Source: Escherichia coli
GTDB taxonomy: Bacteria; Pseudomonadota; Gammaproteobacteria; Enterobacterales; Enterobacteriaceae
DNA: 64,000 nucleotides
Strand: one strand, 5' to 3'
Assembly: GCF_036507355.1 (NCBI RefSeq)
Contig: NZ_AP027877.1
Shown here: positions 18,370 through 19,887 of the stretch, piece after piece
How the letters are laid out: each line of letters opens with the position of its first letter
Numbering within the stretch: the first letter of the stretch is position 1
Position numbers and translations under genes: made by a program
The notes under the pieces: generated by a model
Databases searched by the model: none
What the model was told of the DNA's origin: nothing
The model's input: only the letters and a program-made list of their open reading frames with translations

Positions 18370-19887
18370 ATGGAAAGAATAATGCAAAACAGAAAATGGA
18401 TTTTGTCCTCGCTGGTAATGACTTTTTTCGGCATCCCCATACTGACGCAATTTTTGGCGGCGGTTGTTGCTATGCTGGGTGTCGGACTTGCCGGTATTAT
18501 TGAAGTTTGTAATATCCTTATCACGCCAACAATTTACCTTCTGCTCAACATTTTTATGCTGGCGCTGGGCGCATTAATGCTATTTTTCTCGGGGCGAGTA
18601 TGGGCAGGCGATAGTGCACCAGAAAAAAGAGAAATAGCCGTCTGGCGGCAATGCTTTTTTCTCTTACCCGCGCTATTAACCCTGGTTGGCTGGATAATCA
18701 CGCTACATCTGGCAGATTATCAATTTCGCCAGATGGGAGCTGGTTGGTTGGCAAACCTTATGCTTCCCTGGTTGGGCGTTTTTTTAGTCTCATTAGTGGG
18801 TGGTGAGTACTGGTGGATGGTCATTATTCCCGTTGGGGCGCATATCAGTTTTTCGCTGGGATACGCCTGGCCGACCAGATATCCTTTATCCGGCACGTCC
18901 GGACTACGTTGCCGTAACTTACTCCTGTTTCTACTTCTCTTACTTGGTATTGTCGCCGGGTATCAGGCCCATTTATATAAGCAGCAAAATCCTGGTGTCG
19001 GTGTACGCGAAAATATTGATATCTGGGCCTGGCGACCCGATAAACTCAATAATCGACTGACGCCGCTGCGTGGCAAACCGCAAATTCAGTTTAGGCAAAA
19101 CTGGCCGCGAATCGATGGCGCCACGGCTGCGTACCCAATTTATGCTTCTGCATTTTATGCATTAAGCGTAATACCAGAGGATTTTCACGTTTGGGATTAT
19201 CTGGAAAACTCTCGTACGCCAGAAGCATATAACAAAATCGTTAAGGGCGATGCTGATATTATTTTCGTGGCGCAACCTTCTGGTGGGCAAAAAAAACGTG
19301 CAAAGGAATCTGGTGTCACTTTGCTGTACACCCCCTTTGCCCGTGAAGCATTCGTTTTCATCGTCAATGCGGATAATCCGGTTAATTCCCTGACTGAACA
19401 ACAGGTGCGTGACATTTTCAGTGGTGCAATTACCAATTGGCGTACTGTTGGCGGTAACGATCAGGAGATCCAGACCTGGCAGCGCCCGGAAGACTCTGGC
19501 AGCCAGACAGTGATGCAATCACAGGTCATGAAAAATGTCCGCATGATCTCGCCGCAGGAAACGGAAGTGGCAAGCGTGATGGAGGGAATGATTAAAGTCG
19601 TTGCCGAATACCGTAATACAAACAACGCAATAGGCTATACCTTCCGCTATTACGCGACGCAAATGAATGCTGATAAAAATATAAAATTGCTAGCGATTAA
19701 CGATATTACACCGACGGCGGAAAACATTCGCAACGGCAAATATGCGTACATCGTCGATGCATTTATGGTAACGAGGGAAAATACGACGTCAGAGACACAA
19801 AAATTGGTGGAATGGTTTTTAACGCCGCAGGGGCAGAGTTTGGTGGAAGATGTGGGATATGTGCCGATGTATCCAACAATGGAATAA
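18370..19887 (+). CDS. Polytopic membrane protein (about 6-7 predicted TM helices, residues ~1-200) fused to a C-terminal PstS-like (type-2 periplasmic binding protein fold) domain; function unknown
   Basis: 505-aa ORF. N-terminus hydrophobic throughout; C-terminal ~280 aa carry PstS-like motifs (QRPEDSGSQT, AIGYTFRYYAT). Alternative start at 18382 has the better SD (ggaaag). -10-like tataat at 18346-18351. Confidence 0.7.
   Translation: MERIMQNRKWILSSLVMTFFGIPILTQFLAAVVAMLGVGLAGIIEVCNILITPTIYLLLNIFMLALGALMLFFSGRVWAGDSAPEKREIAVWRQCFFLLPALLTLVGWIITLHLADYQFRQMGAGWLANLMLPWLGVFLVSLVGGEYWWMVIIPVGAHISFSLGYAWPTRYPLSGTSGLRCRNLLLFLLLLLGIVAGYQAHLYKQQNPGVGVRENIDIWAWRPDKLNNRLTPLRGKPQIQFRQNWPRIDGATAAYPIYASAFYALSVIPEDFHVWDYLENSRTPEAYNKIVKGDADIIFVAQPSGGQKKRAKESGVTLLYTPFAREAFVFIVNADNPVNSLTEQQVRDIFSGAITNWRTVGGNDQEIQTWQRPEDSGSQTVMQSQVMKNVRMISPQETEVASVMEGMIKVVAEYRNTNNAIGYTFRYYATQMNADKNIKLLAINDITPTAENIRNGKYAYIVDAFMVTRENTTSETQKLVEWFLTPQGQSLVEDVGYVPMYPTME

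Follow-up and report, generated by a model that had tools for sequence, protein, structure and literature searches.

A PstS-like domain on a membrane module without known relatives: an ABC-independent clade of bacterial proteins seen from Escherichia coli

Gene 1 (M-PBP) of the Escherichia coli stretch analysed here, 64,000 nucleotides of contig NZ_AP027877.1 (assembly GCF_036507355.1) referred to as the window, encodes a PstS-derived Venus-flytrap domain on a polytopic membrane anchor. This architecture is solidly established as an autonomous single-gene unit that is conserved across phyla, and the family of gene 1 is a distinct PstS-like clade, independent of ATP-binding cassette (ABC) transporters, with a membrane module that resembles no known fold. 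The longest open reading frame (ORF) of gene 1 spans 18370..19887 on the plus strand and codes for 505 amino acids, in whose frame all residues are numbered below. A first-pass annotation, made from the letters of the window alone, had described this ORF as a hydrophobic N-terminal half joined to a PstS-like domain; the description was borne out, and all the motifs quoted for it are present (FVAQPSGGQKKRAKESGV at residues 299-316, DSGSQT at 375-380 and AIGYTFRYYA at 420-429). A large conserved clade that has a module of its own and never stands beside a transporter points to a different use of the Venus-flytrap fold at the bacterial surface.

The C-terminal half of the gene 1 product has the PstS fold, as had been proposed by eye, and Pfam, phmmer, profile and Foldseek comparisons agree on it. 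The Pfam family PBP_like_2 (PF12849) matches residues 247-485 with an E-value of 2.4e-29, and solved PstS proteins are reached by phmmer with the single sequence at 1.7e-17 and by a family profile at 2.3e-27. The AlphaFold2 (AF2) model of the full-length protein, with a predicted local distance difference test (pLDDT) score of 85.9 and a predicted template-modelling (pTM) score of 0.74, retrieved the structures 9L8J, 4GD5, 4Q8R and 1TWY in Foldseek (E-values 1e-13 to 6e-15, target-normalised TM-scores 0.66-0.80). Between E. coli and members from Firmicutes and Actinomycetota the binding domain shares 41-46% identity, with many invariant Asp, Glu, Ser, Thr, Arg and Asn residues. While the PstS-type class II fold itself is present, gene 1 does not belong to PstS proper: the curated PstS model TIGR02136 gives it 121.2 bits, below the cut-off of 206.6, and gene 2, a lipoprotein paralogue immediately downstream (119.1 bits), and a Bacillales relative (137.3 bits) fall below it as well.

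The phosphate site of E. coli PstS, which we take to consist of Thr10, the Phe11 backbone, Ser38, Asp56, Arg135, Ser139, Gly140 and Thr141, was compared with gene 1 through a profile alignment to 4Q8R/4GD5 (a phosphate-bound Clostridium protein) and through family column counts. Gene 1 keeps T252 of the first loop and, in the anion loop of domain II, R372 and S376-G377-S378. The equivalent of Ser38 is R282 (K, T, R or N across the family), the equivalent of position 56 (the ASR/ASD position) is A301-Q302, Ser-Arg-Thr stands in place of the Gly-Ser-Ser loop, and Ala-Ser-Arg/Asp has given way to Val-Ala-Gln; the full PstS set of phosphate-binding residues is not found in gene 1. Conservation within the family, counted in 71 sequences representing clusters of 50% identity, revealed about 50 invariant residues without counterpart in canonical PstS, many of them aromatic. 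The near-invariant positions include DGATAxYP, T283, A286-Y287, D296, P303-S304, E326-A-F-V and N336 in the first part of the domain, followed by W357, Q371-R-P, S-G-S-Q379-T, Y414, G-Y-S-F-R426-Y-Y, Y458-P459 and W482. All family motifs, the anchor and a basic loop (R170/R180/R182) occur in gene 1, the sole departure being A459 (window positions 19744-19746) in the G.YP motif, where 70 of the 71 relatives have Pro. Judging from this pattern, the ligand would be an oxyanion or a phosphoryl-type compound that is recognised otherwise than inorganic phosphate (Pi) in PstS.

The same comparisons bear on an accessory PstS role, in which the tethered domain would capture Pi and pass it to the housekeeping PstCAB, like the multiple PstS lipoproteins of Gram-positive bacteria. 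Such a role agrees with the nearest relatives in sequence and structure, which are all phosphate-binding PstS proteins, with the retained R372 and S376-G377-S378, and with the database name of the protein (PstS family). Nevertheless, the score under the TIGR02136 cut-off, the replaced equivalents of Ser38 and position 56 and the family's own invariant residues speak against it, and so does the genomic evidence. A pstCAB set is adjacent in none of the 80 loci surveyed below; the Pho box, which had already been noted as missing upstream, gave no match across the whole window with up to three mismatches allowed; and crude PhoB- and PhoP-box patterns were not enriched upstream of relatives, Pho-type boxes having been checked in 74 loci. 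We consider the accessory role distinctly unlikely.

The N-terminal part, module M, was modelled by AF2 from an alignment of 21 N-domains as a six-helix bundle (pLDDT 90.3, pTM 0.86) with helices at residues 2-46, 53-79, 84-114, 124-144 (kinked), 149-169 and 177-205. Six helices were thus obtained where the first-pass annotation had counted six to seven, and with this module ahead of the domain the fusion is indeed unlike classical PstS, which is soluble or bound by a lipid anchor. The structure prediction and Foldseek search recommended for both halves led from the C-terminal half to PstS and from the N-terminal half to its own family only. In none of the 21 members did residues 1-206 match a Pfam or NCBIfam entry, and the fold had no relative beyond its own family in the Protein Data Bank or the AlphaFold database (AFDB), the AFDB50 search returning same-family proteins only. 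When run against 1.84 billion representative proteins, the module M profile found only 164 relatives; in 86 of the 150 best matches the binding domain is present as well, the remainder being mostly fragments or stumps. Module M is therefore a membrane module without known relatives beyond the gene 1 family. Its overall conservation is low, P23, R93, W108 and Q199 being the only near-invariant residues.

The binding domain most probably faces the periplasm, as suggested by several lines of evidence. Across 70 homologues, lysine plus arginine counts are 1.8 for the N-terminal tail, 3.6 for loop 2-3 and 4.8 for loop 5-6, against 0.4-0.8 for loops 1-2, 3-4 and 4-5. A model with six spans would leave these charges evenly distributed (5.8 inside vs 5.4 outside), whereas five spans, in which either helix 4 or helix 5 stays out of the count, would place about 10 inside and 1.7 outside. 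By insertion energy helix 4 is the least hydrophobic one family-wide (median +3.5 kcal/mol), and in gene 1 it is helix 5 (+5.6). Helix 6, which follows R170/R180/R182, can be aligned with the lipoprotein paralogues over their signal peptide and lipobox (…GIVAGYQ vs …ALLAGCV), and relatives from Bacillales carry an unrelated three-helix anchor with a KKRK-type loop ahead of its last helix. Gene 2, being a classical lipoprotein, would be periplasmic, and as a 58%-identical paralogue it points the same way for the gene 1 domain. If the last helix is a signal-anchor, the domain is periplasmic, and this needs five true spans and one non-spanning helix (4 or 5); we accordingly infer five crossings for module M. 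The earlier expectation of a membrane-embedded N-terminus with the domain outside is thus reproduced by the model in its first part and favoured in its second, with a reservation about a plain count of six spans that is taken up below. Homology between the three-helix anchor of Bacillales and the six-helix module was considered and rejected, since hhalign gave a probability of just 33% and matched no more than the last helix.

Relatives of gene 1 were found in at least 577 species representatives, with one genome taken per species. They belong to Enterobacterales, Beta-, Delta- and Epsilonproteobacteria, Bacillales, Clostridia and Actinomycetota as well as Spirochaetes, Synergistaceae, Bacteroidia, Planctomycetes and Opitutaceae, so the search for homologous fusions in other genera, which had been advised at the outset, found them across many phyla. 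A survey of gene neighbourhoods retained 80 loci with 84 binding-domain ORFs and clustered 1,370 ORFs. A hydrophobic N-terminal region precedes the domain in 82 of the 84, and a polytopic anchor is the rule within the subfamily; the fusion called unusual in the first-pass annotation is so in relation to classical PstS and not among its own relatives. About half of the ORFs have an N-terminal region of about 190-260 residues with 4-6 hydrophobic segments, most of which match the module M profile (32 of 84), and 42 of the 84 are of the Bacillales type with about 120-150 residues and mostly 3-4 segments. The longer relatives P0378 and P0279 contain no additional known domain. No neighbour family is conserved beyond genus-level synteny in the 80 loci, be it an ABC permease/ATPase pair, a kinase or a regulator, and pstCAB-type permease/ATPase linkage was likewise missing from seven contexts inspected individually.

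Comparison with known systems underlines this autonomy. PstS-type binding proteins are partners of ABC importers. With PstS (PstSCAB; TIGR02136/TIGR00975; 4GD5, 4Q8R, 1TWY, 9L8J and E. coli 1A54) the gene 1 product shares the class II binding-protein fold, the Arg…Ser-Gly-Ser/Thr anion loop, the Gly-Ala-Thr N-terminal loop and, most probably, the extracytoplasmic location. It differs in having a polytopic anchor in place of a signal peptide or lipid anchor (a lipobox occurs only in gene 2), in the altered site and curated scores described above, and in lacking pstCAB linkage and a Pho box. Transporters of the OpuA/GlnPQ type have substrate-binding domains fused to ABC permeases and resemble gene 1 in the permanent tethering of a binding domain to a membrane domain in one polypeptide; module M, however, matches no ABC permease family by Pfam, NCBIfam or fold, no ATPase gene lies nearby, and the binding domain of gene 1 is C-terminal to a module of about 200 amino acids. 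Binding-protein domains have also been described in sensors, namely in BvgS/EvgS-type kinases, chemoreceptors and cyclases (PMC8050422). As in these sensors, the binding-protein fold of the gene 1 product would be held on the outside of the cytoplasmic membrane, in a position to signal whether ligand is bound, but the protein has no cytoplasmic transmitter domain (the domain scan found PBP_like_2 only, and the cytoplasmic loops are of about 20 residues) and no kinase or regulator as neighbour.

The combination of an obligatory polytopic tether in Gram-positive and Gram-negative bacteria, a domain unusually conserved across phyla and no transporter partner would also suit a protein that acts on a phospho-compound of the membrane or envelope; polyprenyl phosphates, phospholipid head groups and phosphorylated polymers are examples. 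In that case the lipid would be retained by the helices and its phosphate bound by the PstS-like domain, which might even catalyse a reaction on it. LtaS and EptA are enzymes that consist of a polytopic anchor and a domain outside, a layout like that of gene 1. This alternative is unlikely, since the anchor is poorly conserved and replaced in Bacillales, the domain showed no recognisable catalytic motif and the Pfam and Foldseek matches included no enzyme of the PBP fold. Furthermore, the +2 residue of a lipoprotein determines its membrane destination in E. coli, and Val at +2 would by this rule direct gene 2 to the outer membrane, away from inner-membrane lipids.

We tentatively favour, at somewhat less than an even chance, a reading of the gene 1 product as a tethered receptor that is complete in itself and recognises a phosphate-like ligand, with closure of the binding domain sensed by the protein's own module on its periplasmic side. 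It is favoured because several of the tests described above speak against the classical role of supplying PstCAB under control of the Pho regulon. According to this proposal, the last helix would act as signal-anchor and turn the domain to the periplasm, and the domain would bind a phosphate-like oxyanion or phosphoryl ligand through the half-site Arg372/Ser376-Gly377-Ser378/Thr252. The family-specific residues R282, Q302, E326, Q379 and R426 might join this half-site, so that binding would be neither in the PstS mode nor under Pho control. Domain closure could then be read at the periplasmic face of module M, by W108, the 'GDF' region of loop 3-4 and Q199, and the read-out might alter module M or other membrane proteins, with no feeding of an ABC importer. 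It is doubtful, if conceivable, that the family represents a new kind of surface receptor, with a Venus-flytrap domain coupled to a new-fold module on the same or on a separate chain, without ABC, tripartite ATP-independent periplasmic (TRAP) or tripartite tricarboxylate (TTT) transporters or a kinase, ranging from Enterobacteria to Bacillales, Actinomycetota and Spirochaetes, and serving in enterohaemorrhagic E. coli (EHEC) as an input to type III secretion (O-island 133, OI-133).

The link to secretion comes from an O-island deletion screen, in which type III secretion was reduced in the Delta-OI-133 mutant of O157, this island containing the orthologue of gene 1 (PMC3378721), a result repeated in a later review (PMC10877973). 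Lowered type III secretion of O157 upon loss of the island is an indirect hint but the only phenotype on record, and it makes the gene a testable candidate for an environmental input to virulence regulation.

Several points weigh against the receptor proposal. The ligand and output proposed above are those which the data suggest, and no ligand, partner or output is on record for any member of the family. The secretion phenotype of OI-133 was obtained in a screen, without complementation, and the deletion covered three genes adjoining glgP and glpD. An intact copy is absent from K-12 and from about 40% of complete E. coli genomes, and the function of gene 1 is on that account dispensable. The AF2 model has six membrane-length helices, and if all of them spanned the membrane with the N-terminus inside, the binding domain would be cytoplasmic. 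Conserved polar residues in module M are few and the module is replaced in Bacillales, so it may be an anchor only; moreover gene 3, a free paralogue of the module treated below, could be the stump of a further, third tandem copy. The first-pass annotation had named gene 1 a candidate sensor or transceptor, for which direct support was lacking, there being no cytoplasmic output domain, no conserved kinase, ABC component or other partner in the 80 loci and few polar residues of the kind just mentioned; the present data neither establish nor refute that reading.

Table 1. Features of the gene 1 locus, with window coordinates.
Feature	Coordinates	Strand	Basis
Gene 1 (M-PBP), 501 aa from conserved ATG	18382..19887	+	start comparison, dN/dS, orthologues
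Membrane module M, residues 1-206, six-helix bundle	18370..18987	+	hydrophobicity, AF2
Conserved linker, residues 207-245 (E..I...Y.PF..N.LT.L), last helix to binding domain	18988..19104	+	family and Bacillales alignments
PstS-type class II binding domain, residues 246-501	19105..19872	+	Pfam, phmmer, profile, Foldseek
Intrinsic terminator of glgP, GC-rich hairpin and T8	18268..18297	+	RNA fold, conservation
TATAAT, -10-like hexamer, 30 nt 5' of conserved ATG	18347..18352	+	sequence read
Gene 2, lipoprotein paralogue of the binding domain, lipobox LLAGC	19913..20905	+	58% identity to gene 1 domain
Gene 3, 5' part, 158 codons, free module M paralogue	20905..21378	+	hhalign
IS600 (IS3 family) within gene 3	21379..22642	+	orfA 21443-21745, orfB 21781-22599
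Gene 3, 3' remainder (…QLGFALGYYCQW…MMAWALR, stop)	22643..22774	+	comparison with intact 200-aa gene of ATCC 8739

Gene 1 is a real gene and not a chance frame, because the ratio of non-synonymous to synonymous substitution rates (dN/dS) is low and homologues run to thousands. Against the allele of ATCC 8739 dN/dS is 0.17 (14 non-synonymous and 24 synonymous differences), the value for glgP being 0.03, and against a more distant E. coli allele it is 0.15 overall, 0.09 in the binding domain and 0.28 in the membrane part; this pattern of substitutions indicates that gene 1 is under purifying selection. Translation more likely begins at 18382 than at 18370, as the ATG at 18382 (MQNRKW) is the start conserved in K-12, ATCC 8739 and Klebsiella. 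The RefSeq entry of ATCC 8739 places the start of its gene 1 at an ATA, 3 nt before the conserved ATG. In the window gene 1 follows glgC-glgA-glgP (glgP at 15806-18253), with glpD further on in the opposite strand, and an intrinsic terminator parts it from the glycogen operon: the hairpin behind glgP folds at -17.4 kcal/mol (z -4.2; none of 200 shuffles equally good) and is kept in ATCC 8739, K-12 and Klebsiella. The TATAAT hexamer noted in the first pass is present, but at 18347-18352 and not at 18346-18351, it has no usable -35 element, and a promoter consensus scan yielded nothing above shuffled sequences.

The gene is present in most natural isolates of E. coli, Salmonella and Klebsiella, and the slot between glgP and glpD is used in Escherichia, Salmonella, Klebsiella and relatives. 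The glp-glg interval has been described as a structurally variable hotspot with 'conserved hypothetical genes' (PMC13185298). In complete E. coli genomes, 5,425 of 5,426 match part of the region and 3,329 cover 80% or more of its length, while at least 99% identity over 18000-20200 is reached in only 2 of the 5,425. Full-length orthologues in the slot are ECOLC_RS01525 of ATCC 8739 and ECs_4272 of O157. Genes 1, 2 and 3 of O157 Sakai are ECs_4272, ECs_4271 and ECs_4270, annotated 'membrane protein', 'ABC transporter ATP-binding protein' and 'hypothetical'; our analysis corrects the second of these names, a misnomer of gene 2, together with 'phosphate ABC transporter substrate-binding protein', which databases give to gene 1 besides 'PstS family'. 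In K-12 the gene is represented by yzgL (b3427; MG1655 3563724-3564005), a stump of 93 codons in which the first ~73 codons of gene 1, at 86% residue identity, are joined to unrelated sequence. K-12 has thus deleted the whole three-gene locus, work on K-12 is uninformative on the function of gene 1, and the family is probably little studied for this reason. Synonymous divergence (dS) between gene 1 and the allele of locus L018 (10013-11536) amounts to 0.41, compared with 0.04 for the adjacent glgP (vs ATCC 8739); so large a value within one species implies that the allelic lineages are very old or that alleles have entered this slot from other species.

The locus as a whole is evidently decaying in the window, as read from the loss of the gene 2 ATG, the interruption of gene 3 by the insertion sequence IS600 and the P459A change in gene 1. 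The gene 2 product of ATCC 8739 (ECOLC_RS01530) is a free binding domain of 330 amino acids (MNKFTGVLLLGTALLAGC…). In the window its start codon (19913-19915) is ACG vs ATG in ATCC 8739, and the only in-frame ATGs upstream are 21 and 18 codons 5', within the end of gene 1; gene 2 is probably silenced in this genome. Gene 3 is related to module M from end to end, as hhalign of the module with the gene 3 family gave a probability of 96.7% (E 4.7e-10, 167 columns); the module M profile also retrieved this family (P0147) at 1.2e-6 from the 1.84 billion proteins, and the equivalents of P23, G75, R93 and W108 are retained. Genes 2 and 3 would hence be the two modules of gene 1 in split form, and an Opitutaceae locus likewise has a binding-domain gene followed by a module-only gene, which supports a functional link between module and domain. 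A 278-aa gene upstream of a metagenomic module-only gene was also considered as a binding protein and rejected, since it is not one. The IS600 copy is 99.5-99.8% identical to annotated IS600 and flanked by a CAG duplication, and together with the other lesions it points to an Escherichia lineage rich in insertion sequences, perhaps one resembling Shigella.

In such surroundings gene 1 of the window could itself be a relic on its way to a pseudogene, whatever the role of the family. The inactivation of both genes 2 and 3 and the Ala at residue 459, which may indicate that constraint on this copy is relaxed, fit this explanation, and so do the best cluster representative, just 95% identical, and an orthologue barely expressed in Luria-Bertani broth (LB) in O157. 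The frame is, however, intact over 501 codons, its dN/dS against ATCC 8739 is low and every other near-invariant residue is retained, which makes a relic rather unlikely.

Elsewhere the family occupies varied positions. The Rahnella copy lies between purB and phoPQ, a second Salmonella paralogue between ruvC and ruvA, starting 30 nt after ruvC (L013 6449-8497), and the Brachymonas copy overlaps the end of ruvB (L003 6938-9503), directly downstream on the same strand; that a Holliday-junction gene stands directly upstream on the same strand in two unrelated bacteria may be a coincidence. The Budviciaceae copy is near an integrase, a resolvase and GmrSD. Tandem paralogues occur twofold in Salmonella enterica subsp. 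salamae and fourfold (539, 348, 564 and 521 aa) in a metagenome-assembled genome of Helicobacteraceae (L038 1675-8598). On a Salmonella enterica contig (DBHMGN010000006.1, L014 1-12993) two lipoprotein paralogues (3234-4241 and 5986-6993) are situated inside an array of Rhs C-terminal fragments (DPxGL), PAAR fragments, an HExxH toxin with a lipoprotein immunity gene, Ntox34 and HEAT/SEL1-type immunity genes. Behind the second of them lies a gene for a membrane protein of 108 aa (7131-7457).

The L014 toxin-immunity array raises the question of a protective or immunity-type factor against a competitor's toxin that acts in the periplasm or on the membrane. Single-gene islets in variable slots, the very divergent E. 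coli alleles (dS 0.41), tandem expansions and frequent decay (the K-12 stump, IS1 and IS600 insertions and loss of the start codon) would be compatible with it. On the other hand, this is one array context only, a toxin gene directly upstream is found neither in Escherichia nor in the other 79 loci, and the PstS-like anion site is conserved across phyla, unlike fast-evolving immunity proteins; an immunity function is very improbable. Three related assignments were rejected: a defence system, as PADLOC matched none of genes 1, 2 and 3; cargo of mobile elements, as tblastn found the family essentially absent from plasmids and phages; and a phage gene, as PHROGs led to a generic phosphate-transporter family only.

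Literature searches found no functional study of the gene 1 family, including yzgL, Sll0540, membrane-anchored PstS-like proteins and the glgP/glpD hotspot. The low expression of the O157 orthologue in LB was reported along with an approximately twofold rise in an rpoS mutant (PMC2907692), and yzgL, the K-12 stump, was twofold lower upon Cpx activation (PMC2731931). Together with the OI-133 result, these reports are leads and not proof.

Two observations concern the enterobacterial loci. The second full-length module-and-domain ORF of S. salamae (L004 5407-6981) adjoins the called one upstream and was missed by gene callers; a frameshift affects its last ~20 residues. The place of genes 2 and 3 is taken in Salmonella and Klebsiella by a YbbD_head gene (PF26610, NCBIfam PRK09781), for which no better name than 'hypothetical' was found. 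It lies at 8534-9657 in L004, 8838-9958 in L005 and 7564-8109 in L016, and is split in two in S. salamae.

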